DNA from: an uncultured candidatus Brocadiaceae bacterium
Lineage (GTDB): Bacteria; Planctomycetota; Brocadiia; SM23-32
Direction of reading: 5' to 3'
NCBI GenBank assembly: GCA_964521715.1
Contig: CAZFSS010000013.1
Span: 7,327-71,326 of the forward strand
DNA length: 64,000 nt
Both the position numbers and the translations under genes were made by a program. The notes beneath the pieces are model-generated. The model made no database searches. It saw only the letters and a program-made list of their open reading frames with translations, and was not told where the DNA came from. Shown here one piece after another: positions 1,621-40,451 of the stretch (positions within the stretch are counted from its first letter, which is position 1; each line of letters begins with the position of its first letter).

Positions 1621-1690
1621 GGTGCGGCGCATGCGGGCTCCAAGGGGCGATTTGTGTCCCGCTTCCCTTGGCCTACAACGGGAGCTACAG

Positions 1691-2140: not shown

Positions 2141-2186
2141 CCGGACACAGCCCAGGCCGAGTTCAGAGCCGAGCCGAGGACGACCG

Positions 2187-9177: not shown

Positions 9178-9197
9178 CGAACGCGCGGCGCGCAGGA

Positions 9198-10112: not shown

Positions 10113-10143
10113 GCCAGAAGGGGGCAAGGAGGGCCGCTGCTGG

Positions 10144-10440
10144 CTACCGGCCGGCCGGAGGAGGCGCGGTCAGGACGTCCGACGCGTCTGCCGTTAGTTC
10201 GGGGCGCTCGCTCCAGGCAGCGCGGACGGCGTCCAGGATCCGGCCCTCCGGGAACTCGCTCTGCGCTCCCACGCCCACCTGCGCCCGCTCGAGCGCCCCC
10301 TGGAAGGCGTTCATTGCGTGCGCGAGAGCATCCGCCCGGCGACCGGCCGCCTGCGACCAGAGGACGGCGCACGCGCAGGCCGCCAACCACACGGCCGCCA
10401 GCAGTCCGATGACCACGAGCCGTACGCGCGCACGCGACAT
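10144..10440 (-). CDS. Small membrane-anchored hypothetical protein, last gene of the PilMNO-like block
   Basis: Internal start MSRARVRLVVIGLLAAVWLAACA gives a single TM helix. Its position suggests a PilP-like or accessory protein. Support is weak. Confidence 0.3.
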   Translation of the reverse strand: MSRARVRLVVIGLLAAVWLAACACAVLWSQAAGRRADALAHAMNAFQGALERAQVGVGAQSEFPEGRILDAVRAAWSERPELTADASDVLTAPPPAGR

Positions 10441-10453
10441 CCGCCGTCCCCTC

Positions 10454-11257
10454 CTATTCGAAATCCAGCACGCCCAGGCCAAGCGTCACGTCCACTCGAT
10501 CCGCGTTCCCTGACGCCACCTCCAGCGACCGCAGGACGAAGCAGGGATAACCCGGAGGCGCTGCGGCGACTACGTCGAGGACGCGGGGCAGACCGCCGGA
10601 GGGCACACTGAACTGCAGCGTGACGGGCCAGACCGCATACCGCAGGGCTTCCACGCCCGCCTCTGCCCGGACTGGCGGGCCGGGCCGTGCAACCGGTCCG
10701 CCGATCGCGATCTGGGTGAGCGCGCAGGAACGCAGCGGACCGAACAGGGCCACGACCGCCTCCGCGATGCAGGCGTTCTTCTCGATGCGGTCGAGCTCTT
10801 CCCTGGGCGGCTCTCGTCCGGGCGACTCCCAGTCGTAAGCGGGCAGCAGCGTCCCGCCGGCGCTCCCTCTGGCGGCGGCGCGCAAGCGGTCTTTGAAGGC
10901 GGCGTAGTTGCGCTTCACGCGCGCAGGATCCCCCGTGTATGCCTCCAGCAGGTTGCCCTCGATTGCAAGATCACGGCGGACGTAGTAGCTGCGCAGACGC
11001 CCGTACTCGTCCCGCATGCCGGCCGTGTAGTCGCGCTCCGCAGCGATGCGTTGCCGCGTGGGAAGGATGGACATGTCCAGCCACCGGCCGAGCCTATCCT
11101 GTGCCTGTTCCAGCCGCTTCATGTCCGCGTCAGCCGCTGCCATGACGGGATGCAGCCGCAGCACGGCGAAGAGCACCGCGCCGGCGTAGAGGACCACCAG
11201 CGCCAGGTCCCACAGGCAGCGTTTCAGGTTTGTCCCTCGCATCGCGTCCGCCCTCAC
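10454..11257 (-). CDS. PilO-like pilus-assembly protein (N-terminal TM helix, coiled coil, C-terminal beta domain)
   Basis: TM helix (LWDLALVVLYAGAVLFAVL), a coiled-coil segment and a C-terminal beta-rich region. Its ATG overlaps the upstream stop codon (ATGA). Confidence 0.4.
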   Translation of the reverse strand: MRADAMRGTNLKRCLWDLALVVLYAGAVLFAVLRLHPVMAAADADMKRLEQAQDRLGRWLDMSILPTRQRIAAERDYTAGMRDEYGRLRSYYVRRDLAIEGNLLEAYTGDPARVKRNYAAFKDRLRAAARGSAGGTLLPAYDWESPGREPPREELDRIEKNACIAEAVVALFGPLRSCALTQIAIGGPVARPGPPVRAEAGVEALRYAVWPVTLQFSVPSGGLPRVLDVVAAAPPGYPCFVLRSLEVASGNADRVDVTLGLGVLDFE

Positions 11258-13158: not shown

Positions 13159-13288
13159 CGGCGTCCCTGGCTTCAGAGCACTCCGCTATGGACCGGATCC
13201 CGAGGTCCGGGCGCGCCCATGTTACCAGAAAGCTCCGGTCCTGGGAATACCGGCGAAGAGGGGATTCGCGCGAGGTTGGATGCGCGGC

Positions 13289-15595
13289 CTACTCGCTCCG
13301 GTCGGACGTGCCCAAGCCGCCCTCCGGCGCAGCGGCCACGCTGCGCAGCGCGTCTCTGACGTTGCGCTGTTCATCCTGCGTCAGACGATGTCCGCCGAAC
13401 CGCACCCGGTAGTAGAGGTCCGTGACGAGGTCGATGGCTCGAAGTATGCGGCCATCGTAAGCTTCGGATGCTGCCATCCTTGCGTCCGCCGCCCGTGCCA
13501 GCTCCCGGGGCGTGACGTGGGGCGGCCGGGGGAGGCCCCGCTTCCGAAGCAGCACAAGCAGTTCCTCGTAGAACGCGGGGGGACGGCCAGCCCGCAAGCC
13601 CCGCCAGCGCCATCCGAACCTGGGAGCCCAGGTAGTGGCCAGCAGGTACGCCGAGGCCACCACGACCGCCGTCGAGAGCACCGCCGCCGCTACGCGCAGC
13701 CACCCGAAGGACAGCAGCACCAGCGCGAGGCCACGTGCGACTTCGCCGGCTCCCGTCGCGAACGCCCGGGCAGAGGCCGTGAGAGCAGCCAGCACTCGCC
13801 GCTGCTGCCTCCTGTTGTAGCCGATCACGCTGCTGTTCCACTTCATGGCCGCCAGGAAGTAGAGGCGTCCGGTCACGCTAGATATGCGCTCCACCATCCG
13901 GCCGAAGATGCCCAGGTTGGCGACGTGCCTCCTCTCGGCGCTCTCGGTGCCGGGAGTGGGATCGAACTCCACCCATCCCAGCCCGCTGAAGTACACTTCC
14001 ACCCACGCGTGCGCGTGCTTGTCGCGGAACAGGTAAGTGCCGCTGGAAGGATCAAACTCGCCGCTCTTGAATCCGATGACCAGCCGCGTCGGTATGCCCC
14101 ACACGCGCAGTATGAGCGCCAGTGCAGTCGAGAACTGCTCGCAGCTGCCGCGATGCGTGGTGGTCAGGAACGCTTCGATTGGGTCCTGCTCGCCGAACTC
14201 CGGCAGGTCGAGCGTGTACGTGAACCTGTTGGTATCCATCAGGTAGCTCTGTGCGGCCACGACGTGTCCGTAGTCGCTTGAGGGCGCGTAGAGGCTGTCG
14301 ATCTCGGCGGCCGTGCGCTCCAACGTCGGCCTGAGGGAGGTGGGAATGTCCCAGAAAAAATAGCACGGGCCTGCCAGACGAGGCGCCCGCGCCAGGCGGA
14401 GCTGTTCCGCCGTGAATTCCGGCACGACCGACACGACCTCGTACGGCTGGCCTGGCCTGACTACGTCGCCGTAGAGCAGGTCATTGGACAGCGGTTCCGG
14501 AACCTCCCTCTGGGGCAGGCCTTGCACCTCCACGGGGCGGTAGAGGAAGAACAGACGATGCATGCCCCTCGATTCATACGTTACATCCTGCCGGATGAGC
14601 TGACGAGGGACGTCCGTGTCCTCTAGCCGGTAGACGGAAGTGGACCTGAACTCCTGGAAAGCCCTTCCGGACGCTCGCGCGTCGCTCGTGTCAGCAAGGC
14701 GCTGTGCGGTACCGTAATCGAACCACTGTCCGTCGCGGTACAGCGGGCGGGAAGCACCGCGCATCAAGAGACGGGGCGGCTTTACGGGCGTGCCGTTCGG
14801 CCTGTCCGCCGCGGTGAACTTCACCCGCAGCACCGCGCTGTTGCCCTGACGCATGCGGCCCACGTCATACAGCGAGATGTTCTCGGAGAAAGCAGTCACG
14901 AGCGCCGGCAGCGGCCGCCAGTCCCAGAGGATCGCGGCCCGCGGCAGGATGATGAACAGCACGGCGGTGCACGCAAACACCGAAGCGACGGGCAGCCAGA
15001 GCGCTGACACCAGATCTTGCCACGCCCCGGCCTGTCCCGCACGGTCCGCTGCAGCCGCTCCCGCGACGTCGGAGGCAGGGAACAGCTCCATCGCTATCAG
15101 GTTCGCCATCAGGCAGAGGCCGGCCAGGACGAACATGGGCAGGTAGGCGAGATCGAACGCCCAGACGCCCGCCACCAGTCCCTCAAAGACGGCCACAACC
15201 TGGATCAGCCGGATGTCCCGCGTCGGGCGAGGGCCGTAGACCTTCAGCACTTGCACTAGGATCAGGAAGTGGGCCAGCCCATAGCTGAGGTGCACGTCTG
15301 CGGCCACGGCCTGGATCAAGCCGAAGGCAAGGGCCGCAAGGGCAAGCAGCATGTCCGCCCGCGTGGATACGAGCGGCGGCCCGGTCGGACCCACGATGAC
15401 GGCATGCGCACCGCAGAGAACCAGGACGACGAACACGTACTGCCACGAGTGCTCTGCAACGGCCAGCAGAAGCGCGCCCGTCATGATGACGGCGTAGGTG
15501 GTGAGAAGCGTCGGCCAGTTCCCGGCCCCGCCGGCCCACGCCGCCTCCGCTTCGTTGGCTTCAGGTGACGAATATGTCATCGAACTGGGGCTCAC
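13289..15595 (-). CDS. Transglutaminase-like membrane protein (TgpA-like: DUF3488 N-terminal TM region + transglutaminase core)
   Basis: N-terminal multi-TM region, then the catalytic triad context GSCEQFSTALALILRVWGIPTRLVIGF ... HAWVEVYFSGLGWVEFDPT. Confidence 0.85.
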   Translation of the reverse strand: MSPSSMTYSSPEANEAEAAWAGGAGNWPTLLTTYAVIMTGALLLAVAEHSWQYVFVVLVLCGAHAVIVGPTGPPLVSTRADMLLALAALAFGLIQAVAADVHLSYGLAHFLILVQVLKVYGPRPTRDIRLIQVVAVFEGLVAGVWAFDLAYLPMFVLAGLCLMANLIAMELFPASDVAGAAAADRAGQAGAWQDLVSALWLPVASVFACTAVLFIILPRAAILWDWRPLPALVTAFSENISLYDVGRMRQGNSAVLRVKFTAADRPNGTPVKPPRLLMRGASRPLYRDGQWFDYGTAQRLADTSDARASGRAFQEFRSTSVYRLEDTDVPRQLIRQDVTYESRGMHRLFFLYRPVEVQGLPQREVPEPLSNDLLYGDVVRPGQPYEVVSVVPEFTAEQLRLARAPRLAGPCYFFWDIPTSLRPTLERTAAEIDSLYAPSSDYGHVVAAQSYLMDTNRFTYTLDLPEFGEQDPIEAFLTTTHRGSCEQFSTALALILRVWGIPTRLVIGFKSGEFDPSSGTYLFRDKHAHAWVEVYFSGLGWVEFDPTPGTESAERRHVANLGIFGRMVERISSVTGRLYFLAAMKWNSSVIGYNRRQQRRVLAALTASARAFATGAGEVARGLALVLLSFGWLRVAAAVLSTAVVVASAYLLATTWAPRFGWRWRGLRAGRPPAFYEELLVLLRKRGLPRPPHVTPRELARAADARMAASEAYDGRILRAIDLVTDLYYRVRFGGHRLTQDEQRNVRDALRSVAAAPEGGLGTSDRSE

Positions 15596-16919
15596 TGACG
15601 TCTATGAAAACCGAGCAGCCGGCCAGCGGACCGAGCACGGCCTCCTTCTCGTCGGCGTGCAGCGGGCCAGGCGTGATGAGGCAGACGCCGCCTGCTGCGA
15701 CCTGGTGGAGGTTCACCGCGCCGGCCAGGTCGGCAATCGTGTGGTCCGGCGTGGTTTGCGCCAGCGCCAGCACCTCCAGGAGCGAATAGAGATGGCCCTG
15801 GCCCGAATCATAGGGAAGCGAGTTGAGGTTCGGGCAGTAGGAGGCGAAGGCATAGAAGACGTTCCGTTCCCCCAGCAGAGCCGCCATGGACGCCGCGAAG
15901 CTCACCGCCTTCTCGTAGCGCTGCAGCCGGGCTGGTGCGTGCTGCGTGTCTTGCGGCGGCGCGTATGAATCGAGCAGTATCAGAACGCTGTTGATCTCCC
16001 GCCGCTCGAACTCCCGGACGTACAGCTTGTGCAGGCGCGCGCTGGTCACCCAGTGGATGTGGCGCGGATTGTCGCCCGGCTTGTACTCGCGCAGCGACCG
16101 GAACTCCCCCTGCTGGTCCTTGCGTCGGAGTTCCAGCAGCCAGCGCGCCTCGCCGGCCTTGTGACGCAGCAGCGCTTCCTCCTTGATGAACCCCATGCGA
16201 GGCAGGACCAGGACCTCCCGCTCGGACTGGATCTCCACGGCGGCTTCCACCATGCCGAAGGGGAAACGCGTCGCCACCGTGATGGGACGCGTCCTGTGCA
16301 TCCCCCGATCAGGGAAGTACTGGCGCAGCAGCACCGAGCGGCCCTGTCCGGGGGCCAGCTTGCGGATGGTGTGAACGAGTTGGGGCTCCGGGCCGTCGTT
16401 TCCGTCACGGCTGACCCTGAGCCCGAACGCGCTCAGGCCGCCCCACGCCGTCTTCTGGTTCCGGACGGCTACCTCCACGCGAAACGGGTCGCCCGCAAAG
16501 ACGTGCTCCGGCATGTCCCAATCGGCTCTCGTCTGCCTGAGCATCAAGGCGGGAAGGACGATCGCGCAGACCCCCATTCCCAGCAGGAACGCAGCCGTTA
16601 GGTACACCAGATTCATGCCCCACTGAAGCGAGGCGAAGCAGAACGTCAGGCCCACGCAGCAGTACACGAGGCCCCAGGGCGTGAGTCGATAGCGGAAGCG
16701 AAGCCTCGTCTTCGGGGCGGCCTTGAGGACGAGCGATGAGACGAAGACGCTCACGAACTGCCATACCACGACCGTAAGGAGTATGAGAAGCGCGCTCTCG
16801 CGGTCGCCCAGGATCAACAGAGGGGGGACGCTCAGGCACGCGGCAATCCACAGGATGAGGCCCACCAGTCTGGTGAGCCGCGAGAGGCGGGCCAGGACCC
16901 CTTTGCCGACCTCTGACAT
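15561..16919 (-). CDS. DUF58 (vWA-like) family protein with N-terminal TM helices
   Basis: REYKPGDNPRHIHWVTSARLHKLYVREF is the DUF58 signature. It sits between MoxR and TgpA as in the canonical triad. Confidence 0.85.
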   Translation of the reverse strand: MSEVGKGVLARLSRLTRLVGLILWIAACLSVPPLLILGDRESALLILLTVVVWQFVSVFVSSLVLKAAPKTRLRFRYRLTPWGLVYCCVGLTFCFASLQWGMNLVYLTAAFLLGMGVCAIVLPALMLRQTRADWDMPEHVFAGDPFRVEVAVRNQKTAWGGLSAFGLRVSRDGNDGPEPQLVHTIRKLAPGQGRSVLLRQYFPDRGMHRTRPITVATRFPFGMVEAAVEIQSEREVLVLPRMGFIKEEALLRHKAGEARWLLELRRKDQQGEFRSLREYKPGDNPRHIHWVTSARLHKLYVREFERREINSVLILLDSYAPPQDTQHAPARLQRYEKAVSFAASMAALLGERNVFYAFASYCPNLNSLPYDSGQGHLYSLLEVLALAQTTPDHTIADLAGAVNLHQVAAGGVCLITPGPLHADEKEAVLGPLAGCSVFIDVSEPQFDDIFVT

Positions 16920-28058: not shown

Positions 28059-28244
28059 TTAGGTGCCGGCGTTCCCGATCGTGTCGCTCACCTGCGTCAT
28101 CTTGTTCGCGGCCTCGCCGCCGAGAGCGGTCAAAGCAGCGATAACGACGATTGCCACAAGCGCCAGAATCAGCGCGTACTCCACGAGGCTCTGACCCTTC
28201 GTGGAGTGCAGAGCCAACCACAGCTTTACCAGGAACCTGTTCAC
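28059..28244 (-). CDS. flp: Flp/Fap family type IVb pilin (Tad pilin)
   Basis: 61 aa. Prepilin-peptidase motif G/QSLVEYALILALVAIVVIAALTALG (G-x4-EY then a hydrophobic helix). It is a lone gene with no tad/cpa genes in the window. Confidence 0.75.
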   Translation of the reverse strand: MNRFLVKLWLALHSTKGQSLVEYALILALVAIVVIAALTALGGEAANKMTQVSDTIGNAGT

Positions 28245-29651: not shown

Positions 29652-30966
29652 GCAGATGGGTCCATCGGCTTCGCGAACGGCGAGCGTCGCGGGCACCTAA
29701 ACATGACCGGGGGAGTCAACAATATTGCCCGGCTTGTTGCCTTTGCTTGGTTGCGGCCGTCCAGGAGCCACGCGCAAGGCGTGATCTGCGGGGGCGTGCG
29801 GAACTTGCCGGATTTGCCTGATGGAAGCCGCCTTCTCGGCAGCAAATGCCGTGTTTTCTGTAAGCCATTGCCCCGCAGAGCCTTGCAGGGCTTAATGCCG
29901 CCGACAGCCGTTCCTGGTGGCGCCTCGGCGCGCTTTCCCGCGAGGAGGTCCCTCCGGATCCGACGTTCTGGGCAGCCGTCCCGGCATCTCATGCCTCCGA
30001 CGGCCCGAGTCCAAGAGCGGCTAGCGGCCGTGCGCTCCGCATCCGTTCTCGCCATCCCGTAGATCGCGGCGCCGATGGCGCGCTCAACCGGATTCGCGCC
30101 GCGGAACCGCCTTCCTTCGCCATATCCACCGGTTCTGTCGAGACACAAGCCCAACGGCTCGGGGGACTTCTGAGGAGCTCAGCGCCCCGATCTCTATCGA
30201 GCCGAGCCCGCCAACGCAGCTTCGCAACGGCCGCATGAGGCCGAACTACCTGCTCTGTAGCCTAAAGGGCCGCGCTCCCACGCCCGTGGGACAGCGCTAC
30301 CAGCGCCGTCGCCGCCAGCGAAGACGGCCAACTGCGAGCCCGACGGCGCAAAGCACGCCAAGAGGCCCCGTCCCGCTGGCCGGCAGCGCTTCAGGCTCGT
30401 CTTCGTCAGCTGACGGGCGGAGTGCTGCAGCGGCATGCGGCCAGGGCGCGTTCCGGGGCCGGACATAGCAGGAGCTAGTTTGTGTTGTACATAATATATG
30501 TTATCGGACGTTGCACATACGCCCACTAGTCTCGGACAAGTAAAATGACACCAATGACACGTAAGATGGCACAAAGGGGGCGCCGCCGGCGTACACACGA
30601 CGAACGCGGCGCAGGAATGCGCTTCGCGTTCAAAAGCGGCGTGTATAGTATCAGACGAGGGCGCAGAGGAACGAACCGCCGGACCGCACCGGGGCGGGGC
30701 CAAACTGCCCCGCCCGGCACTCCGTGACGGCGCTTTGCACGCGCCCTGAAATCATCGTTCACCGCCCTTGCAGCGGCCATGCACCGGCGCTGCCCGGAAA
30801 CCGGGGCGCTGTGGCCGCCTCTGAGGCGCGTTGCCAGGCCGCGTCAGGGCAATGCCCGGCGGCCCGATGGTCGCCCCACAGAGGCCCTGGTGCCGCCTCG
30901 CGCCCCGCCTGGTGAGACCGACCGTGCGGCGTTGTGCTTCGCCCGGCATGGTTGCCCCTTATCATT

Positions 30967-31320
30967 TCAACAGCCCCCTTTCCGCCACGGCCAGAGGCCA
31001 GCCGCCGTCAACTGCGCCCGCCAGGCGGTTATCAGTTCCTCCAGGAGCATGTGGCTCATGTACACCACGGCGACCCACGCCTCTTCACTCAATCCGGCGC
31101 TCGCCGCTTCGCGCGCGACCCCGCCGATCACGATCGCCTCCGGCGAAAGCTCCACGTGAGTCTCACCGGCCTCGACGGCGCGCTTGTAGGCGGCCATCAT
31201 CTCGCCGATGCGGGCCGCGAGTTCCACCCGCACCCCGTTCCCCTGCGCCCGCCGTGCCGCCTCCAAGATGGCGTCGAGGTCGGCAGGCGTGAGACTGTCC
31301 TGGCCGTCCGCCATCATCAT
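30967..31320 (-). CDS. Hypothetical protein downstream of the tape-measure gene (ATGA-coupled)
   Basis: The MMMADGQ... start overlaps the tape-measure TGA stop. The longer ORF in the track overlaps the tape-measure gene in another frame and is Arg-rich junk. Confidence 0.35.
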   Translation of the reverse strand: MMMADGQDSLTPADLDAILEAARRAQGNGVRVELAARIGEMMAAYKRAVEAGETHVELSPEAIVIGGVAREAASAGLSEEAWVAVVYMSHMLLEELITAWRAQLTAAGLWPWRKGGC

Positions 31321-33284
31321 GTCCTCGCCTGCGAGAGGTGCTTCAGTTGGGCTTTCATCCGCGCCAGTTCGTCCCGCATGATCTTTGTGAACTGCTGCAT
31401 GGCCATGACCTCGGCGTTCGTGAGCTGCCGGTCCGCCAGGAACTCCTGCCACAGCTTCTGCTCCTGGGCGAACCACGCCGCAATGGCCTCGTTCAGGCCG
31501 GCCTCTTGCTGTAGCGGCGTCAGCGCCATGAGCGGCGCCACCACGGGCGCGGCGGCCGCACCGGCCCGGCCTTCGATGCGTTGCAGCACGGCCAGCATGT
31601 CCGCCAGGAGTTGAGTGTTTTCCTCCCCGCGTGCGGCCGCGCGTTCGGGGGCTGCCGCGCCGATCTCGGCCGCGCCGGCAGCCGCGCCGATCACCCCGGC
31701 GCCTGCCGCTTCCGCTGCCTGACCGGCCCGAAACCGCAGGGCCTGGAGCGGGTCCATGAGTGGGCCGGTCAGCCGCTCGAACATCGCCGATATCCAGTTG
31801 CCCGCCCGGAAGGTCGGCGGAACCGGCTGCCCGCCGGGACCGCGCACGCCCCACAGGCCCGGCCCCTTCGTCGCTTCTACCATCTGGCCGGCGCCGAGGC
31901 CTTGCAACCTCCGGCCCCATTCCCTTACCGCCGCGCCAAAGTGCTCTGACAAGTAGGCGACCACCTGGTCGATCAAGTCCATCGCCTTGTTGGCGAGGAG
32001 TCCGAGGGTCGCCTCGGCCAGCGTGCGGATGTCCGCGAAACTTTCAACAACCAGCCCCGGAAGGTTCGCAACCGTGTCCTTGAACCCCTGCCAGACGGCG
32101 CCCCAGTCCCGCGTCGTGAGCCAGGTCCATGCGCCCTCGAAGGCGGCCACGATCTGCTGCCCGATCTGCCCCACCTGCTCGCCGAGCCGCTGGAACGCCG
32201 GGGAGTCTCTCAATCGGTCCAGCCAGGCCGCCACGTTGTTGAGCGCCGGCACCAACGCGCCAGTCAGGGCCTCCGTTAGCGCCTCCACGTCCTCCCAGAA
32301 CGCCCGCCATATCTGCTTCATGGGGGAGAGGCGCGCGACCTCCGCAGCCACGCCCCCGAACCGTTGCGCCAGCACCGCCGCGAGGTCCGCGACGTTCTTG
32401 ATGCGGGCGATGGTCTCCGCCGGGATGCCAAGCTCAAACAGGCGCATCTTCGCCCGGCCCAGGTCCTCCCCGCGCGCCGCCACCTGGACAAAGAGGTCCG
32501 CCACCTCGCCCAGACTCACACCGGCGCCGACCGCCGCGTCCGCGATCACCTGGAGGTACTGGGCGGGCGCGCGCAGGTCCGTCCGCGCGAGTTTCACGAG
32601 AGCCCCGGCCAGTTCCTCCTCCGCAATTCCAACGGCCGGACTGAGCCGCGCGATCTCCTTCCACGCCGCCTCCCATCCCGCCCCGAGCCGGCGCTTGAGC
32701 ACCGCCTTGAGCCGCATCTCGGCCAGGTTCCCCGCAATGCCCTTGACCATCGCGGCGCCGACCGCCGCCCCGATCCCGAGACCCGCCACTACGGCGGCCT
32801 TCGCCACCTTGCCGAGCACGGAAGCGACCGCGCCGATAATCGACTCGATGGCGCCGATGATCTTCTGCACCAGACCGGCCACAACGTTCAGCACCGCGCC
32901 CGCAATGTTCGCCGCGATCCCGACGAGGCCCTGGAGGATATTCGCCGCCGTCCCGACCACGCCCGAGAGGATTCCGCCCACGCCGGGGATCAGGGAAGCG
33001 AACGAGTTCAGAATGCGGACCGGAATTAAGGCCAACGACGTGGCGCCCTTGATGAGGTCGGACAGCATTCCGCCGATCCCGCCCGGCCGTGTGGCGAGCG
33101 CGCCGGCGATCCGGCCGCCGACGCCGCCCCCAAACATGCGGGCGAACCCGCCGCCCAGGCCGGCGCCGAGTCCAGTGCGGAGCTTCCCCGCCAGGTCGCC
33201 CAGGTCCTTGCCCAGCTGTTTGATCTGCGCCCCGGCGCGCCCCTTCAGTTCAACCAGGATTCCGTACTTCAGGTCCTTGCCCAT
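31317..33284 (-). CDS. Phage tail tape-measure-like protein
   Basis: 655 aa, Ala/Gly-rich with repeated small-xxx-small glycine-zipper-like hydrophobic segments (GIAANIAGAVLNVVAGLV..., GLGIGAAVGAAMVKGIAG) and long predicted alpha-helical and coiled regions, the typical composition of tape-measure proteins. No enzymatic motifs. Confidence 0.5.
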   Translation of the reverse strand: MGKDLKYGILVELKGRAGAQIKQLGKDLGDLAGKLRTGLGAGLGGGFARMFGGGVGGRIAGALATRPGGIGGMLSDLIKGATSLALIPVRILNSFASLIPGVGGILSGVVGTAANILQGLVGIAANIAGAVLNVVAGLVQKIIGAIESIIGAVASVLGKVAKAAVVAGLGIGAAVGAAMVKGIAGNLAEMRLKAVLKRRLGAGWEAAWKEIARLSPAVGIAEEELAGALVKLARTDLRAPAQYLQVIADAAVGAGVSLGEVADLFVQVAARGEDLGRAKMRLFELGIPAETIARIKNVADLAAVLAQRFGGVAAEVARLSPMKQIWRAFWEDVEALTEALTGALVPALNNVAAWLDRLRDSPAFQRLGEQVGQIGQQIVAAFEGAWTWLTTRDWGAVWQGFKDTVANLPGLVVESFADIRTLAEATLGLLANKAMDLIDQVVAYLSEHFGAAVREWGRRLQGLGAGQMVEATKGPGLWGVRGPGGQPVPPTFRAGNWISAMFERLTGPLMDPLQALRFRAGQAAEAAGAGVIGAAAGAAEIGAAAPERAAARGEENTQLLADMLAVLQRIEGRAGAAAAPVVAPLMALTPLQQEAGLNEAIAAWFAQEQKLWQEFLADRQLTNAEVMAMQQFTKIMRDELARMKAQLKHLSQART

Positions 33285-33302
33285 TCGATCAGCTCCGTCG
33301 CC

Positions 33303-33629
33303 TCACAGATAAGATGGCATGTGCGACAGCACCTGGCAGAGGGCCAGCCTCACGTCGGCTGATACGCTGTCCGCTGTCAGTTTTGAGCCCAAGAAGGGGG
33401 CGCCCAACAGATCGGCCGGCCCGATTGCGGCCGTCTGCCAACCCTGAGCGCCACGGCGCCCGTATCGCCTGTCGGCCATGCCGTCCAGCCGGCTGTAGGC
33501 CCACACGAGGCGGTTGACGCGCCGTGCGCAATCCGTGCGCGCTTCCGCCAGCAGCGGCGTGCCCCAGGGTTCCAACGTGCATCGCGCCAGCACTGCCTCA
33601 TGACCCGTCTCTACGCTTGTGTCTGCCAT
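33303..33629 (-). CDS. Hypothetical protein immediately upstream of the tape-measure gene (possible tail assembly chaperone position)
   Basis: 108 aa, positional inference only. Confidence 0.25.
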   Translation of the reverse strand: MADTSVETGHEAVLARCTLEPWGTPLLAEARTDCARRVNRLVWAYSRLDGMADRRYGRRGAQGWQTAAIGPADLLGAPFLGSKLTADSVSADVRLALCQVLSHMPSYL

Positions 33630-34071
33630 TGCATCCTCCCACTACATACGCCACAGAGAAACCGGGGCAGGCCGGCAGGCCGTGCGCTTACCGCGACCCG
33701 CCCCGGAAAAAGGCGCGCCGAGTGACGACGCGCCGTTGCATGCAAGGGCAGGGCGCCCGGAAAAAGGAGACGAAAACAGGCGCCCCGCCCGACTGGCGCG
33801 GCCGCGCCGATCTGCCCGAGCCGGGAGGCCAGAAGCGTGGGCAACCGGCTGTGCAACCGCTGCCCCCGCCGAGAACGGCCGTGCAGATCCGCGGGCCGTG
33901 AATTCAGAGGCCCGTGCCCGCTGGAGGTCGCGGGCCGGGCCAAAGTTGAAGGGGCGCCGGAGCAACCAAGCGCCCCCTCTGCGCTGGGCAGGCACCACGG
34001 TGCCGGGACGGCGTTCGGTCCCCAGCGCCGCTCTCACTACGTGGATCGTGCCCGCCGCACAGAACAACATG

Positions 34072-34737
34072 TCACGCAACCTCGCCGTCGTCCGTTCCGC
34101 CGAAGTCAATCTCTCCCATGCCCACGGCCGGCGCCGAAGGCCCACTCGCCGCCCGCAGCGCCCGGACCCACACCACCGTGTTGTGCCGATGATCCAGCCC
34201 GACCTCGCACGGCAGGATGGACGTCAACTCGCCGCGATACCTCTCCCGGATCGCCTGATCTATGCGGCCGCCGACCTCGCCATCAGCTTCCAGATAGCGC
34301 CCCAAGTTCAAGGATTCGTCCGCCCGCCAGCCCTTCGAGGGCTGTCGGAAACCGAGCAGCATGGCCGTCCAGTTGTCGAGGTCCGCCGAGGCCATGATCT
34401 GCAGCACTTCGAGCCGCCCAATCAGGCTAAGGCCAAACCGGCCGGAATCGAGCGCTGCCTCCAAATCCCCAGCCCTCACACACGCGATCCCGTCGACGTC
34501 GTACGTTGGCAACGTCACGTGGCCCCGCTCGCTCCCGCCCTGCATCGCCGACCCGACCAGCCGACGGACCATCGGCATGTTGAGGTAGGCGCCATCAGGC
34601 CGAAGGATCAACTTCGGTTCCAAGGCCTGCGCCTCGCGGTTGCGCGCAAAGTCTTTCCCCGCCAGCAGCGCGGTCTCCTCCTGCCGGCGCTGCTCCAACA
34701 ATTCCGCCCTTTTCTGCTCCGCTGCCCATCGATCCAT
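34072..34737 (-). CDS. Hypothetical phage-associated protein
   Basis: 221 aa ORF in the co-directional gene block. No recognisable motif. Confidence 0.3.
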   Translation of the reverse strand: MDRWAAEQKRAELLEQRRQEETALLAGKDFARNREAQALEPKLILRPDGAYLNMPMVRRLVGSAMQGGSERGHVTLPTYDVDGIACVRAGDLEAALDSGRFGLSLIGRLEVLQIMASADLDNWTAMLLGFRQPSKGWRADESLNLGRYLEADGEVGGRIDQAIRERYRGELTSILPCEVGLDHRHNTVVWVRALRAASGPSAPAVGMGEIDFGGTDDGEVA

Positions 34738-34743
34738 GTCCCT

Positions 34744-35160
34744 TCACGCTCCTCTCTCACGAGCGCTCAACTGCTCGTATCGCTCAACGAGAACCGCCAG
34801 GCGCCACAGCCCAGCGGCGTCGTCCAGATCGCCTTGGACCCAACGCCGGAACCTGCGGCCCGTGACGCCCAGGACGGCGGCCAGAACCCGCAAGGCTGTC
34901 CGTACGTCGAGGCCACATGCCGCCATCATCGCCCCTATTGCGTTCACAACCAGAGTCGCCCGCACCTCCCGGTCTTCCCGCCGCACACCCGCCTGTTCTA
35001 CGTGAACATACTTCCGCCCACGCCCGCCCTTGATCCTCCAACCCGGCGCCGCGAACTCCGGTTCAGGCAACCGAAGTTCGCCCAACCGCCGCGCCCGCGT
35101 CCCGCCCGTCCGCACGATCTCGCCGACCATCCCGTCCTCGATCTCGCCCACGTCAAGCAC
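34744..35160 (-). CDS. Hypothetical phage-associated protein
   Basis: 138 aa. It overlaps the upstream gene by 8 nt. Confidence 0.3.
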   Translation of the reverse strand: MLDVGEIEDGMVGEIVRTGGTRARRLGELRLPEPEFAAPGWRIKGGRGRKYVHVEQAGVRREDREVRATLVVNAIGAMMAACGLDVRTALRVLAAVLGVTGRRFRRWVQGDLDDAAGLWRLAVLVERYEQLSARERGA

Positions 35161-35677
35161 CGGAACCTCCCTTCAGAAATTTCAGGATGCTGGCCAGTCC
35201 GATCCCCCGCTCGCGGTGCCTATTGGCGAGCCGGCGGCCCGTCGACACCCGCCGCAACCGGCCGGACCTGACGTAGCGTCGGAGAGTGGAGACGCTGCAG
35301 CCGAACAGCTTCGCAGCCACCTCATACGTCACAACCCGCGGCACCCGCCTGCGGTTCTCTCGTTCGGCTTGCAGAGCAAGAGCCAGCTTGCAGACGACAT
35401 CCGCCCTGGCCGCCGGCGTGAGTCCATCATCATCGGCCGCCTCTTGGAGCCGCCGTTCTAGCGTCACGATCAGCACGCGCCGGTTGAAACGCCGGTTCGC
35501 CTCCCGTAGAGATTCCCAGTCCAGCCCCGCCTTCTCTTCCTCAACCTCCCAACGGTAGAGCGTACCCGTGCTCACGCCCAGGCGCCGGCTGATGTTCTGG
35601 CGGCTGTAACCCCACGAATACATCCGCCGGGCCAGGTCCAGGAATCGTCGCTTTTGGTGTGTCCTGATGACGCTCAC
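35153..35677 (-). CDS. Double helix-turn-helix DNA-binding protein downstream of the transposase (in the MuB position but with no ATPase motifs)
   Basis: Two HTH-like segments (ISRRLGVSTGTLYRWE; AAKLFGCSVSTLRRYVRSGRL). Its ATG overlaps the transposase stop (ATGA). No Walker A or B motif. Confidence 0.4.
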   Translation of the reverse strand: MSVIRTHQKRRFLDLARRMYSWGYSRQNISRRLGVSTGTLYRWEVEEEKAGLDWESLREANRRFNRRVLIVTLERRLQEAADDDGLTPAARADVVCKLALALQAERENRRRVPRVVTYEVAAKLFGCSVSTLRRYVRSGRLRRVSTGRRLANRHRERGIGLASILKFLKGGSGA

Positions 35678-38190
35678 GCCGCGCCCTCCCCCGCCTCGCC
35701 ATCACCCGGCAGCAGGCCGAACTCGCGGAGCAAATCCCGATCCTGCGCACTCAAGTCCTTCACCAACCCCGCGTCCATGGCGGCCACATCGTTCTTGAAG
35801 GCACCAAGCGTGTCATCAACGTCGGGATAAAGAGGATCGGCTGCCGCCTCCTCCAACTCGCGCAAGATCAACCGCAGGCGAACCGCAGCGTCCCGCCGCG
35901 AGGCCGCGCAGTCGCTCCAAGGCAACTCGCCTCCATCCGTGAGGTCCCCGACGACGACCACATCCTCCAGCCCATCCGGCGGCCGGTGCTTCGATTCGGC
36001 GTCCAGGTCGATTTTTGCCTGCGCCACGAGGGCGGCCTGCCGCCCCACGAGCGGAGTAGGCCAAACATCATACCGGGCCAGAGCCGACGCAAGTGACGGC
36101 GGCATGTCGCGCGTCCATTTCGCCGGCAGGGCCGCGAATTCGGCAGCCGCCCGCGCGAACAGCCCATCCCTCGTCTCCGCATCGGCCTCCCGCTCGCCCT
36201 CCAAGATCATGTCACAGACCGCGCGCACCGGCGTGTCCTCGGACCAGTCAAAGTCCGCGATGTCGAGCCACTCTTCGCTGTAGATCGACCCCGGCGGGAC
36301 GGGGAAGCACGGCTCGTAGGCCGGCTTCGCGGCGGCCTCGATCTGGCGCCGCGCCTCGGCCCCAGCGCCTTTCAGAAGCACAACCTCGCCGGCCCGGCGC
36401 TTCCCTCGGGCTTCGCTCGCAAGCCGCGCCGCGACCGCGCGATAGGCCCCGAGCGGATCGACCACAGAGTCCGGCACGTCGCGCAGTTCTGCCGCCGCCT
36501 GGCGCAGGTGCTCCCGCTGCTCGCGGCCCGCGCGCCGGGCCTTTTGATTCGCCGGCCCGTCGGTCCCCCACACGGCTTTCGGCGCCGGGCGCAAGGCGAT
36601 AACCTCGCCATCGTTTAGATAGGCGAAGGCTTCGCCGTCCGCCCACCTCACGGAGACCTGCTGCCCGGTGTAGAGAAAGAGCCGCTCACCGGCCCAGTAG
36701 TTTCCGTCGAGCAAGACACCGTAACCTGTCACCCTGCGCCGGCCCGTCTTTTGGAGCAAGAATGCGAGAGCCCGCTCGTCTTCGATTCGAGGCCGCTGCG
36801 CGGCCGCGTAGAGTTCGACGGGCGGCGCCGTCCGCTCGCCGCAGACGTGCTCGTGGTTCCACTTCTCAAGCTGCCGGGCGAAGAGCTCCGCGAACTCCTC
36901 CCAACTCAGCAATTGGCCCTTCACGACATGCTGCGCCAGGCGCTCGGGCTTGTCCTTCGCGTCGCGCCCGCACCAGCCCGGCAGCAAGCGCTCCCACCGG
37001 CGAAACGCGCCGAGCAAAGGCTCCGCGGCCTTCCCCCAGGGCGCGTAAGGCAGACACGTCGTCACCCGAATCCCCAGAGCCGCGAAGAGCGCGCCTTCCT
37101 GCTCGGGATCAAGCAGGGCCGGCCACGTATCGCAACCGCCGAGCTCTTTCGTCCGAGGTCGGCGCAGCCTGGATGCTCTGCCGCCGAGGCGGCGCGCCGT
37201 GAACTCTCTGCCATTATCCCGCTGAAAGGTGTCAGGTTTGCCCCAGGTCAGGAGCGCCTGCCGGAGCACCTGGCCGACAACCTCCGCGTTCGGCTGCCGG
37301 GACAGTGCGTAGGCGACCAACGCGCCGCTGCCTACGTCCCAGACGACCGTGACCCACGGCCTCCGCGCCTTGCCTGCGTCCGAGATCATGATATCGGCCA
37401 GGAAGTGATCGGCCGACCAGGCGCTCCCCGGCGCCGGGACTTCCCGCCCCACCTTTGGCCCCATGTCCGACCTATAGGCGCGCGGCCCCTCCCGAAAGAG
37501 CTTCTTTTCAAGCGGCGAGATGCCGGCCACGAACCGCGCGACGCTGCGCTCGGATGGTGCGTCTTGCCCCGTCTCCGCTGCCCAGCCGCAGACGGTGTAT
37601 TCGTAGACTTGGGCCGCCGTGGGCCGCCCTTCCGTGAGATACAGGGCGCGGACACGCTTGGCCAACTCGGGCGGGATGCTCGGATGCTTCCCCCGCCGCC
37701 CCACGCCACGCCGATCAATCAACTCGCCCTCGCGGCCGGCCCGCAACGCGCGCTCCCAGCGCCGGAGCGTGCTGATGCTGACACCCCACTCCGTGGCGAC
37801 TGAGCGCCAGGCGGCGTTCTTCCTCCCGCGTGGCGACCGCGCCGCGCGTTCCTCGGCAAGCGCCACGGCCGCGCGTTTTTCAGCCGCGCCGATCAGCTTC
37901 GCCCCGTCGCCGCCCGCAATCAGGGCGGCGGCGTCCGGCGTCATGCCATCCGCCAGGACCGGCACGCCGCCCGGCGCCGGCGGCCCTTGCGCAGGAGCGA
38001 GCGCCGCCACTTTCGGTTGGAGCTGCGAAAGGAGCACGCCGAACTGCGGGCGCCCATTCCGGGCCTGCCCGATAGGCACGGCCAGGTAGACGCCCGCCTG
38101 AATCCCCCGCCGGATTGTGCGCTCTGACACCCCCAACACCTGGCCCGCCTCTTCGATGGAAACTATGGGTTTGCCCACGTCGTCGAGCAC
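35674..38190 (-). CDS. Mu-family DDE transposase (MuA/TnsB-like; rve integrase core)
   Basis: N-terminal HTH (IEEAGQVLGVSERTIRRGI) plus a second DNA-binding region. The catalytic core has D in WSADHFLADI, D in FQRDNGREFTA and E in PYAPWGKAAEP, with D-D-E spacings of about 63 and 65 residues as in Mu/TnsB-family enzymes. The C-terminal domain is long. Confidence 0.75.
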   Translation of the reverse strand: MLDDVGKPIVSIEEAGQVLGVSERTIRRGIQAGVYLAVPIGQARNGRPQFGVLLSQLQPKVAALAPAQGPPAPGGVPVLADGMTPDAAALIAGGDGAKLIGAAEKRAAVALAEERAARSPRGRKNAAWRSVATEWGVSISTLRRWERALRAGREGELIDRRGVGRRGKHPSIPPELAKRVRALYLTEGRPTAAQVYEYTVCGWAAETGQDAPSERSVARFVAGISPLEKKLFREGPRAYRSDMGPKVGREVPAPGSAWSADHFLADIMISDAGKARRPWVTVVWDVGSGALVAYALSRQPNAEVVGQVLRQALLTWGKPDTFQRDNGREFTARRLGGRASRLRRPRTKELGGCDTWPALLDPEQEGALFAALGIRVTTCLPYAPWGKAAEPLLGAFRRWERLLPGWCGRDAKDKPERLAQHVVKGQLLSWEEFAELFARQLEKWNHEHVCGERTAPPVELYAAAQRPRIEDERALAFLLQKTGRRRVTGYGVLLDGNYWAGERLFLYTGQQVSVRWADGEAFAYLNDGEVIALRPAPKAVWGTDGPANQKARRAGREQREHLRQAAAELRDVPDSVVDPLGAYRAVAARLASEARGKRRAGEVVLLKGAGAEARRQIEAAAKPAYEPCFPVPPGSIYSEEWLDIADFDWSEDTPVRAVCDMILEGEREADAETRDGLFARAAAEFAALPAKWTRDMPPSLASALARYDVWPTPLVGRQAALVAQAKIDLDAESKHRPPDGLEDVVVVGDLTDGGELPWSDCAASRRDAAVRLRLILRELEEAAADPLYPDVDDTLGAFKNDVAAMDAGLVKDLSAQDRDLLREFGLLPGDGEAGEGAA

Positions 38191-38204
38191 GTCAAGGCCC
38201 TCCT

Positions 38205-38585
38205 CTATCGGAAAGGCTCTGCCCTTTCCCTTCTCTGCGCGAGCGTCCGCAGCGCGTGCGCTACGTCCACCTCTCCGCGCACCGCATCGCCCAACGCAAT
38301 CACCCGCGCATCGTAGTGACCCCCAACGCTGAAGAGCACGCGCGGCGTGTGCCCCGAATGCCGAAAGGCGGCTTCGAGGTCCACGCCCAAGAAGCGCCAG
38401 CGCTCACAACGCAGCAGCCCCGCCACCACGCGCTCGGCGACTTCCTGTGCCCCGCCCCTGCCGACCTTCACATGCGCATCCCGAGCCAATATCCGCAACG
38501 TCCGGTCACGTCGCCGGACCAGCCGGCCCGGCCGGCCGGCCCGGTCAACCGCGAGGCTCGCCGATTCGCCAGAGCAGTACGTCAC
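38205..38585 (-). CDS. Hypothetical protein between the Ner-like gene and the transposase (GTGA-coupled start)
   Basis: The GTG at 38585 overlaps the Ner-like TGA stop. The Arg-rich N-terminal extension in the track overlaps the Ner-like ORF and is probably spurious. Confidence 0.3.
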   Translation of the reverse strand: MTYCSGESASLAVDRAGRPGRLVRRRDRTLRILARDAHVKVGRGGAQEVAERVVAGLLRCERWRFLGVDLEAAFRHSGHTPRVLFSVGGHYDARVIALGDAVRGEVDVAHALRTLAQRRERAEPFR

Positions 38586-38896
38586 GCGCCGCCCTCCCCG
38601 CCCGCGCCGCGCTCTACTTCTACTCCCCCGCCCGCGCCGACGCGGCCCCGTTGACTTTGCCGAAGCGGCGGGGTATCCTTCCCGCGTTCGGTCAAGGCGG
38701 CCCCGATGGCCTCTCGCAGGCGCGCCAACGTGTCGCGCCGGCACGGCCAATCACAGAGCAGCTGACTCACACGCTGAGGCGACGCCCCATAGTGTTGGGC
38801 GACGGCCTGGCGCGACAGCCGATGGCGAGCACAGAACGCGCGAAGCTCCGACGAAGTCCTTGGAATACCCGGTTCTCGTGAGGTCGCTTGGGCCAT
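38582..38896 (-). CDS. Ner-like small HTH DNA-binding protein (early regulator position)
   Basis: HTH segment LRAFCARHRLSRQAVAQHYGASPQRVSQLL. I chose the internal Met at 38896 so that the gene does not overlap the divergent repressor gene. Confidence 0.45.
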   Translation of the reverse strand: MAQATSREPGIPRTSSELRAFCARHRLSRQAVAQHYGASPQRVSQLLCDWPCRRDTLARLREAIGAALTERGKDTPPLRQSQRGRVGAGGGVEVERGAGGEGGA

Positions 38897-38945
38897 TGCG
38901 GATGCAAGTATACCAGAACAAATCCCCGATTGCAAGTTAAAACGG
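38897..38945. promoter_or_regulatory. Divergent promoter/operator region with a direct repeat TGCAAGT x2
   Basis: TGCAAGT at 38903-38909 and 38931-38937, 28 bp apart, in the 49-bp gap between divergent HTH regulator genes. Confidence 0.4.
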
Positions 38946-39359
38946 ATGGAGTTCGAAAGCATATCGGAAACCCCTGCGGATCGGCTCGCGCAGGCTCTCG
39001 CATACGTCCCCCACACCCAACGGGAAGTGGCCGGTCGCTTAGGGATGTCAGAGACGCACCTATCCGCAGTCAAGAACGGCCACGAGCCATTGTCGCCGCG
39101 CGTTGCGCGTGGACTTCAAGAGGCGTTCGGCATACGGGCGGAGTGGCTTCTGCACGGCACAGGCGTAATGCTCGACGCTCAGTCCGAGCTTTGGGGGGCG
39201 ACCACGACAACCTCCCCCGGCGCGGTGTCGGCCATCTACCGCAAGACCTTCTTCTGCGGTGCCTGCGGCCAGCCCGTGGCTTTGAACCGGACGCCCTGCC
39301 CGCACTGTGGCTGCCGGTTGCTCTGGCCGGCCGATCCGGCAGAGGCCGAAGCGGAATAG
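38946..39359 (+). CDS. XRE-family (Cro/CI-type) HTH repressor with a C-terminal zinc-ribbon
   Basis: HTH segment QREVAGRLGMSETHLSAVKNG. C-terminal CGACGQP...CPHCGC is a 4-Cys zinc ribbon. Confidence 0.7.
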   Translation: MEFESISETPADRLAQALAYVPHTQREVAGRLGMSETHLSAVKNGHEPLSPRVARGLQEAFGIRAEWLLHGTGVMLDAQSELWGATTTTSPGAVSAIYRKTFFCGACGQPVALNRTPCPHCGCRLLWPADPAEAEAE

Positions 39360-40451
39360 GCTCCGTCCGGTTTCTGCCGGTCAAAAACCGGAGTAGAAGC
39401 CCGTTCTCGCTTGCGCCAAAGCCGGTTTTCGGGTATCATGGAAGCATCGTTGAGCACGAGTCGCGCCCGAACTGCCCGTTCAGGCACGACGCCAGGGAGC
39501 CGGGGAGCCCACCTCGGCTCCCTGGCCCTTTATGGGGCGGGCTTTGTATAGCGGTTTCACCCGCACGTCTGACCCGCTTTGGCATGCCGTTTGCTGTGTG
39601 TCCGTAGGATTGTCCGCCATTGTCCCTTGGATCGGCCGCCGGCGGCCCGGCCCCGAGGGCTGCAAGGCCCCTGAAACGCCCCTGCATGGCCGTTTCAGGC
39701 CATCTGCCCGTCCGTCCCCGCCGCTGCCGAAAACGCGCATTCTACGCGGATTCGGTTCAAATCGATGCATCCCCTTTTTTGCCCCAACTCCATGCCTCCC
39801 ATACCTTTACGCCCACGGACATTGTCCCATCTTCCTTGTCCCCCACTACCCACGCCAACAGGCCTCTCGTCGATGGGCTGCGCGTGCGGGCGCCGGCCAA
39901 CGGCATGGCCGCGTCTTCCATCATAGCCGGCTGGAGGAAGATGGTGTAGGAGAACGCCATGAACGTCGTGACGCCGCCCAGGACCTCCCGCCCTAGCATG
40001 CTGCCACGCTCGCCGACTCCGAACATCTCCCCAATGGATGGCATGGCCCAGGTCCTCCGATGAAGGCATCCCGGGAGTCCAGGCGGCCCCCCTGCCGGCA
40101 GGCCCGATGCGCGGCGGACGGGCCCTCGGACACCCACTTCTTAGGGGCGGATTATAAGGCCGACGGGTGCCGCGGTCAACGCGTTGGCGACGGCTGCCGG
40201 GGCCGCTTGGGGCGGTAGTCTGGGGGCACTTCAGCGTCGTGGTCTGCCAGTATGGCAGGCGGAATCGCCTCGCCCAAACGGCTGCACCGCGCCTTCGGAA
40301 GGCGCAACGGCGCCTGAACTCCTAAGACGCTGCGAAGAAAGGCCTTAGGGTCCCGCGCCGCAGGCATGGTATTGCATTTGCGCTTGATATGGACTACACT
40401 GAGGGGTTTGCCAGTTCGAAGAGACTGTAAGCGAAAGGAAGGTCGATGGCA

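Follow-up and report, generated by a model that had tools for sequence, protein, structure and literature searches.

What kind of mobile element lies between an alcohol dehydrogenase (ADH) gene and dnaK in the genome of an uncultured candidatus Brocadiaceae bacterium? The question is raised by a 64,000-nucleotide stretch of contig CAZFSS010000013.1 (hereafter the window, ~67% G+C), in which an earlier note had placed a mobile island at 29652-40445 and had described it as either a heavily decayed transposable prophage or a compact transposon with a tape-measure-like cargo. The element itself proved real but smaller than this island, occupying positions 30527-39848 (9,322 bp). Of the two readings, the compact transposon is favoured over the decayed prophage, because its coupled open reading frames (ORFs) are intact, because its ends and a 5-bp target duplication are intact, and because diverged relatives carry the same reduced gene set, including a complete relative at locus L045. 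We give a probability of about 0.68 to the view that the element is a complete compact Mu-family transposon of an undescribed lineage that lacks MuB, and that it carries a tape-measure gene in a cargo operon.

Ends, target duplication and genes of the element

The inverted ends, TAGTCTCGGACAAG.../TAGTGGGGGACAAG..., are imperfect and agree at 19 of 27 positions. Because the similarity between these arms stops at TAGT (30527) and ACTA (39848), and because the pentamer CCCAC flanks both sides, the mobile unit can be delimited together with a 5-bp target-site duplication, as the earlier note had predicted. A duplication of this length is a hallmark of Mu-type transposition, and the probability of finding CCCAC at both sides by chance is ~0.0017 per register. 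Within these limits, a repeat of 19-20 nt, TTGTSCCATCTTMCKTGTC, is present in three copies that all point outward, a single copy at the repressor end and a tandem pair at the opposite end. In a position weight matrix scan of all 64 kb, these copies score 31.3, 31.3 and 30.5, the next best site scoring 14.7, and a 19-mer search for the repeat gave two matches versus 0.02 expected. As judged from sequence, the repeats are the predicted transposase-binding sites, and their one-site/tandem-site layout resembles that of Mu L1 versus R1-R2.

Both outer junctions are 100% identical in independent Logan assemblies from several samples (left, L087, L088 and L090; right, L001). It could be supposed that two Mu-like elements were joined during assembly through a stretch shared by their DUF1804 genes, given that the Logan contigs of the window element and of P0002, an element from the same samples, both end at a shared 30-mer in this gene, and that 35421-35572 is the only stretch spanned by no Logan contig. 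Such an artefact is hardly credible: the shared stretch amounts to merely 30 nt, the DUF1804 reading frame is continuous, the transposase gene adjoins the DUF1804 gene in relatives as well, and the outer junctions show matching 5-bp duplications and end repeats, as for a single insertion.

The divergent XRE-type repressor and the Ner-like helix-turn-helix (HTH) protein reported by the earlier note are both present (Table 1), and its assignment of the 838-aa protein to the Mu-family DDE transposases is borne out by matches to phrog_310 (E=2.4e-68 over residues 105-573) and rve (E=1.9e-9). The match of this protein to PF09299 (Mu-transpos_C) is weak (16.4 bits, for a cut-off of 21.7), as is that to Mu I-gamma; the related transposases of P0002 and L008 bear precomputed PF09299 matches. 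Residues D261, D325 and E390 are invariant in 35 relatives, and the DDE core is intact. The closest transposases among GenBank phages, those of BalMu-1, RC1/RS1 and Mushuvirus, are ~24-25% identical. Downstream of the transposase gene lies the gene for a double-HTH protein of the DUF1804 family, which in full-length relatives is found directly 5′ of the large terminase gene and in phage SuMu likewise just upstream of the terminase gene. This protein and the small ORFs of the earlier note (126, 138, 221 and 108 aa) were all confirmed as ORFs. For orf221, no match was obtained in Pfam, PHROG or the PDB, where a profile search returned a spurious calmodulin only, and its AlphaFold2 model is poor (pLDDT 48).

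Using family hidden Markov models (HMMs) built from relatives, no MuB, portal, capsid, terminase, tail tube or distal tail gene was found in the 64-kb window, and Pfam and PHROG scans of the island ORFs agree; the first four absences had been noticed before. The MuB model gave 47 matches in relatives and 0 in the window. The coding frames of the element contain no Walker A motif, the island ORFs no TnsC/TniB ATPase or TniQ/TnsD domain, and an Rfam scan of the island found nothing. All ORFs of the element are intact, with neither pseudogenes nor frameshifts, and several overlap their neighbours. The noncoding gap of 440 bp described by the earlier note was confirmed by a G+C content that is flat over the three codon positions (0.71/0.71/0.71), on which ground a 142-aa gene placed there by a gene caller was rejected. 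The gap probably marks the end of the early operon. Promoter- and terminator-like signals stand in sensible places, which was counted against decay.

Table 1. Features of the element and its borders (window coordinates; aa, amino acids)
Feature	Position	Strand	Basis and remarks
Mobile element proper	30527..39848	-	All genes on the minus strand except the repressor gene
Left 5-bp target-site duplication, CCCAC	30522..30526	.	Same as 39849-39853; directly at the limit of inverted-end similarity
Right 5-bp target-site duplication, CCCAC	39849..39853	.	Identical to the left copy
dif-type XerC/XerD site	30484..30511	.	Reverse complement ACGTCCGATAA CATATA TTATGTACAAC; outside the element
Two tandem predicted transposase-site repeats, tape-measure-distal end	30534-30553 + 30555-30574	-	21-bp period; outer copy 7-8 nt from terminus
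Predicted transposase-site repeat, repressor-proximal end	39822..39841	+	7 nt from terminus
XRE-type repressor, 137 aa, C-terminal zinc ribbon	38946..39359	+	HTH_3 E=3.7e-6; phrog_2328 'transcriptional repressor' E=1.4e-9; divergent from early operon
Candidate early promoter, TTGCAA-17-TATACT with upstream TG	38907..38935	-	Between repressor and Ner-like genes; consensus match only
HTH protein in Ner position, 104 aa	38582..38896	-	Weak HTH matches; positional homologues 5′ of the transposase gene in 25 related loci
orf126, small early ORF	38205..38585	-	Called in Logan contig L001; no family match
Mu-type DDE transposase, 838 aa, ~200-aa C-terminal extension	35674..38190	-	phrog_310, rve
Double-HTH protein, DUF1804 family, 174 aa	35153..35677	-	PF08822 34.3 bits, cut-off 29; 4-nt overlap with transposase stop
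orf138, small protein	34744..35160	-	Weak matches to HTH proteins preceding ORF221 in relatives; 8-nt overlap with DUF1804 gene
orf221, founder of the 'ORF221' family	34072..34737	-	Homologues in L008, L012, L014, L018, L027, L045, L085/86, L092
Noncoding gap, ~440 bp	33630..34071	-	Two terminator-like hairpins, 33712-33734 and 33777-33791
orf108, tail-assembly-chaperone position, 5′ of tape-measure gene	33303..33629	-	Weak match to L005 chaperone (E=1.3e-3, small database); no family match
Tail tape-measure protein homologue, 655 aa	31317..33284	-	phrog_1535 E=1.2e-9; phrog_1272 also matched
orf117, 117 aa	30967..31320	-	ATGA overlap with tape-measure stop; G+C by codon position 0.70/0.51/0.86

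Relatives and the origin of the tape-measure operon

Relatives of the transposase were recovered by an exhaustive HMMER search (851 at E<=1e-10); single-protein scans of genomes and viral contigs had given none, and a word-based homology search one distant match. The related loci were collected with a 12-sequence alignment of the closest relatives and annotated with the HMMs built from relatives. Most of them are ordinary Mu-like phages, with rep, ner, A, MuB, GemA, DUF1804, large terminase, portal, protease, gpT and gp36 genes. The gene order departs from that of classical Mu in L030, L032, L035 and L038 (= IMG/VR L074, L075): their head-module genes (DUF1804, large terminase, portal, protease, gpT, gp36) are encoded on the other strand, to the left of the repressor gene and divergently from ner-A-B.

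A subset of the relatives is MuB-less and comprises the window element, L018, L027, L045 (=L085/L086), L014/L019 and the P0002 element (L002-L004). Where a complete transposase ORF has an ORF221-family neighbour (window, L018, L027 and L045), the transposase is 838-880 aa long, while MuB-bearing transposases are mostly 640-770 aa long, the extra length of the long type lying past the conserved core. ORF221-family homologues are found in most MuB-less elements and in the MuB-bearing L008, and were undetected in the full phages surveyed; the family of orf117, p157 and p182 occurs in compact contexts only, among the loci surveyed. A switch of the repressor/Ner type, together with a long DDE transposase, a double-HTH protein of the DUF1804 family and an ORF221-family protein, forms the core of the lineage. 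In the P0002 element, which comes from the window's sample series, the repressor has 162 aa, the Ner-position ORF 94 aa and the transposase 766 aa, the last being 29% identical to that of the window; directly after it comes a DUF1804 gene, the product of which shares 80% identity with its window counterpart over the first 35 aa.

One relative, L045, has both ends within one contig. Its 16-mer CGCGTGGAATGAGAAA is present in 5 copies versus 0.17 expected, with one near each terminus, one more inside the left end and a tandem at the right end, so that it shares the 1 + 2 tandem site layout with the window element. The best boundary pair, 8815-15658, delimits 6,844 bp with TGG...CCA termini and a 5-bp duplication, CCAAA. 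Its genes encode a repressor, an 880-aa transposase, a small ORF, an ORF221-like protein, another small ORF, DUF1804 and two tiny ORFs, with no tape-measure gene. Since L045 is complete at 6.8 kb, the MuB-less lineage appears to consist of compact complete transposons, to which the tape-measure operon is an add-on.

Other loci do carry the tape-measure gene. L092 repeats the gene block of the window, with a fusion of orf138 and orf221, a 63-aa ORF, the tape-measure gene and a 182-aa protein related to orf117 and to p157 of L014. In L014/L019, a transposase gene (42% identity), the tape-measure gene 1 nt downstream, p157, DUF1804 and an ORF221-like gene are gathered within ~7 kb and followed by host genes. 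L008 holds rep, two DUF1804 genes, A, MuB, GemA, an HTH gene, an ORF221-like gene, small ORFs, the tape-measure gene and another three small ORFs; its inverted 14-mer repeats are spaced ~13.8 kb apart, with host-like genes beyond, and its ends and duplication are not definable. The layout of L012 is similar. Further along L008 (14.0-22.2 kb), an HTH gene, an HtrA-like protease gene and a DHQ synthase gene precede a DUF1804/large-terminase/Portal_Mu block at 18.2 kb, which is either a second element or part of a phage split by host-like genes.

The 655-aa protein, which the earlier note had called tape-measure-like, has full-length homologues in phage tail modules. Its N-terminal region is Gly/Ala-rich and hydrophobic, with a hydrophobic run spanning residues 105-184, and its extreme C-terminus is conserved; across the 11 homologues found, N- and C-terminal columns are invariant and length is kept. 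No match was obtained in GenBank phages. Identity reaches 61% with the L092 protein and 58-59% with those of L010 and L091, the closest ones with visible context, in which the order is tube, chaperone(s), tape-measure and then a conserved 262-282-aa distal tail protein. The tape-measure genes of L005/L098 and L100 also lie in tail modules, beside Portal_Mu, Mu protease, gpT and gp36. Because the homologues in L005, L010, L091 and L100 stand between tube/chaperone and distal-tail genes, the protein is judged to be a genuine tape-measure protein, truly homologous to those of Mu-like siphophage tail modules. It had been stated that nothing except noncoding DNA lies distal to its gene, which is wrong: the well-supported orf117 had been overlooked. 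This ORF weakly matches L014_157 (E=8e-4) and L092_182, which occupy the equivalent position, and is separated from the terminus by 440 bp. What follows the tape-measure gene differs with context: the orf117/p157/p182 family or other small ORFs in compact loci, the 262-282-aa family in phages. Tape-measure identities interleave between the two contexts, which suggests that the module was exchanged with phages more than once.

This phage origin also invites a different history, in which a transposable siphophage of ~36 kb lost MuB, lysis, head and most tail genes by internal deletions and left a defective Mu-like prophage. The tape-measure gene and the chaperone-like ORF plainly come from phage tail modules, DUF1804 normally precedes the terminase gene, the 440-bp gap and the 440 bp beyond orf117 could be deletion scars, L014 retains a protease/scaffold-like piece, and ends and duplication outlast internal deletion. 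However, at least three deletions would be needed, each producing clean operon junctions, in an element free of pseudogenes and frameshifts whose junctions are coupled from transposase to DUF1804 to orf138 and from tape-measure to orf117. In addition, the reduced set recurs in diverged elements with differing gene orders, a complete relative of 6.8 kb exists that has both TG...CA ends and a duplication, the ORF221 and p157 families are absent from the full-length relatives surveyed, and the long transposase type tracks the absence of MuB. Decay of a full-length prophage is therefore considered unlikely. A tblastn search of the flanks and gaps with all ORFs of the related loci yielded only noise in place of phage-gene remnants.

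The compact-transposon reading also has a sharper version, that of a helper-dependent transposable satellite, which would replicate by its own transposase and use DUF1804 and its own tape-measure protein for packaging and delivery in the virions of a co-resident Mu-like siphophage. The functions kept are the element-specific ones only, namely immunity, the transposase with its ends, a DUF1804 protein encoded beside the terminase gene in relatives, and a tape-measure protein with conserved terminal motifs; scaffold-like ORFs are carried by L014 and L012. In one metagenome-assembled genome from one sample, the compact L019 is found together with a 36-kb Mu-like phage (L006/L098), the tape-measure proteins of the two being 42% identical over their full length and the DNA 77% identical over the first 389 nt. 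The tape-measure protein is, moreover, a known conflict point among Mu-like siphophages, being the target of the Tab defence of JBD26 in Mu-like Pseudomonas phages (PMC10884400). On the other side, the window's genome has yielded no helper, the family includes members devoid of a tape-measure gene (L045), and the DUF1804 paralogues of L008 lie in the early operon and may be mere regulators. In the literature searched, neither a Mu-type satellite nor a satellite possessing a tape-measure gene is described, nor is such a gene as stand-alone cargo. The satellite version is thus proposed tentatively, at well below even odds.

The dif site and the flanks

A dif-type site, the only one in the window, lies just outside the tape-measure-distal end of the element and agrees at 22 of 28 positions with the dif site of Syntrophus (PMC2731167). 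This AT-rich motif was considered as a transposase site or an element end and rejected as such, as it fits published dif sites. Its XerC arm is 10 bp from the duplication and 15 bp from the element terminus. L014/L019 has a near-identical site (21/23) adjoining its distal end region, at ~16 bp from the final direct-repeat pair (the terminus of L014 is undefined, one end being available). It is extremely unlikely that two related elements lie within ~15 bp of dif by chance. GC skew gave no signal either way on a replication terminus at this locus. A precedent is known from the 'dif hunters' IS1202/ISAjo2, which insert in fixed orientation and at a distance of 5 bp to the XerC arm of a dif or pdif site (PMC10132070).

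The dif-type motif ATAATATNTGTTATCNGACGT was also observed in five unrelated viral contigs, L093-L097 (IMG/VR, 39-50% G+C), in three cases close to the end of a contig. Within ~20 nt past the motif, L094 and L097 show a ribosome-binding site and an ATG. These five contigs are probably Xer-exploiting elements.

Such cases raise the question of whether the dif-like site could be part of the window element, or whether the latter could be an integrative mobile element exploiting Xer (IMEX) that uses host XerCD for integration or cointegrate resolution, CCCAC being coincidental. The distance of 15-16 bp from the distal end region in two related elements, the presence of the motif in unrelated viral contigs, some near contig ends, and the somewhat repetitive terminal sequence around the junction (CCCACTACCCAC) speak for this possibility. 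Yet Xer-mediated integration leaves dif-like sites at both junctions, and is unlikely here because dif is found at one junction only and the duplication is of the transposase type. The inverted-end similarity halts exactly at 30527/39848 without reaching over dif, the orientation of the motif relative to the genes is opposite in the two elements, and the DDE transposase of the window element is intact and has its cognate repeats at the ends. An origin through Xer is accordingly very improbable.

The right flank of the element contains dnaK and clpB, and its immediate left neighbours are genes for an ABC transporter, a GT9 transferase, DapB, a Flp pilin and ADH. The heat-shock genes that the earlier note had seen on both sides therefore flank the element on the right only, dnaJ, hsp20 and lon lying ~25 kb from it at 502-4655. 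The codon-position composition of the island is that of the host (G+C at third codon positions 0.82-0.87). Three further features were observed around the element. The pilin gene (Flp/Fap, 61 aa) stands alone between dapB and the ADH gene at 28059-28244 (-). A sigma-70-like promoter near consensus (TTGACC-17-TATAAT, 11/12) lies at 40151-40179 (-) in the dnaK upstream region and faces the repressor-proximal end. Finally, a short ORF at 39757-40044 (-), with the N-terminus GREVLGGVTTFMAFSYTIFLQPAMM, runs from host DNA over the element terminus; its interpretation as a purine permease gene cut by the insertion (first transmembrane segment resembling that of the AzgA type) is unproven and was not used, since Pfam gave nothing and the reconstructed empty site yields a 65-aa ORF.

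Objections, proposed working and comparison with known systems

Several points weigh against a complete compact transposon. The window element ends in TA...TA, whereas TG...CA, as predicted by the earlier note, is usual in the superfamily. The inverted-end score with the duplication (19/30) is by itself not above background, so that the case for the ends rests on the coincidence of inverted ends and duplication with the site repeats. No empty site could be retrieved for the comparison proposed in the earlier note and no second copy was found, every ADH-bearing contig including the junction or ending before it. Mobility is therefore inferred from structure, and the empty site with a single CCCAC, ATCGGACGTTGCACATACGCCCACGCCAACAGG, is a reconstruction. 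Internal deletions in situ would likewise spare ends and duplication. A 208-aa ORF of L014 (5806-6432), missed by the source annotation, could be a phage remnant: over its first ~100 aa it matches the Mu gpI protease in the C-terminal (scaffold) region (PF10123 E=2e-4) and is 34% identical to residues 268-373 of the L005 protease. L012 has two ORFs similar to it beside its tape-measure gene. Repeated independent decay could also produce the interleaving of tape-measure identities, and we know of no function for a lone tape-measure gene. As for dif, adjacency concerns two elements only and opposite sides, the distal end facing the XerC arm in the window and the XerD arm in L014. L008 and L045 are not at dif, hence any dif targeting would be a sub-lineage or facultative property.

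A compact transposon with tape-measure cargo could work as follows. The repressor would hold the divergent early promoter off; upon derepression, the early operon (Ner-like gene, orf126, transposase, DUF1804, orf138 and orf221) would be read to the terminators in the 440-bp gap. The transposase would then bind the three end repeats, pair the ends and move the element in the absence of a MuB-type target ATPase. Target capture may instead be provided by the long C-terminal extension of the transposase and/or by ORF221 or DUF1804, which would perhaps recognise dif or Xer. The orf108, tape-measure and orf117 genes would form a separately controlled cargo operon derived from Mu-like siphophage tail modules. 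In the least certain step, this operon would act like that of a satellite, exploiting a related helper phage's tail assembly or interfering with it; alternatively, the cargo would interfere with the tail assembly of rival phages. The boldest combination of these ideas, a MuB-less Mu-derived 'transposable satellite' that is dif-site-specific through its long transposase and/or ORF221/DUF1804 and whose tape-measure protein commandeers or sabotages helper tails, is a doubtful one.

Mu-type transposition has normally been studied as MuA plus MuB in a 37-kb phage. A natural MuB-less lineage of 6.8-9.3 kb raises the question of how target capture and the avoidance of self-insertion are achieved without the ATPase. 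The retention of phage-type immunity, in some members with tape-measure or scaffold-like genes, raises that of whether these elements are parasites of Mu-like phages, and the position of two elements within ~15 bp of dif that of whether dif is a safe-harbour target; if so, dif targeting would extend past the IS1202 insertion sequences. For the stand-alone tape-measure cargo, which has no precedent in the literature searched, hijacking and interference are testable options. Compact MuA-only systems with defined ends could also serve as genetic tools.

Among known systems, the element resembles the Mu-like siphophages (Pseudomonas D3112/B3/DMS3/JBD26 type, RcapMu-like RC1/RS1, BalMu-1) in its divergent repressor and Ner-position HTH genes, MuA-family DDE transposase (phrog_310), opposition of one end site to tandem sites, 5-bp duplication, DUF1804 gene and siphovirus-type tape-measure protein. 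It differs from them in size (9.3 kb versus 35-40 kb), in lacking MuB, lysis, terminase, portal, capsid, tube and distal tail genes, in a transposase ~100-200 aa longer at the C-terminus, in its TA...TA termini, and in the ORF221 and orf117 family genes, unseen in the full phages surveyed. With the Tn7-like and Tn5053-like transposons (TnsB/TniA + TnsC/TniB + TniQ), it shares a related DDE superfamily, 5-bp duplications, multiple end sites and possibly a site-specific 'safe harbour' type of insertion, but no TnsC/TniB ATPase or TniQ/TnsD homologue was detected, and its regulators and cargo are of phage type.

A parallel in insertion site is offered by IS1202/ISAjo2, which likewise combine a TnsB/MuA-like DDE transposase bearing N-terminal HTH domains with the absence of a TnsC/MuB-type ATPase, 5-bp duplications and proximity to the XerC arm (PMC10132070). 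These are, however, 1.5-kb single-gene insertion sequences with TGT...ACA ends, whereas the window element is 9.3 kb long and phage-derived, with 10 bp between duplication and XerC arm, two cases known and the related one on the XerD side. Phage satellites (P4, PICI/SaPI, cf-PICI, PLE) are also small, with their own regulation and replication or integration and most virion genes gone, and they keep a packaging-specificity gene; DUF1804, which adjoins the terminase gene in relatives, appears to hold the small-terminase position. Known satellites differ from the element in using integrases in place of a Mu-type transposase, and the literature searched describes none that carries a tape-measure gene. 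Finally, laboratory mini-Mu similarly consist of Mu ends and early functions without virion genes, transpose, and are packageable by helper Mu (see also PMC5847225). Mini-Mu are engineered deletions that usually need MuA and MuB, whereas the window element would represent a natural MuB-less lineage that has conserved accessory genes of its own as well as a tape-measure operon.

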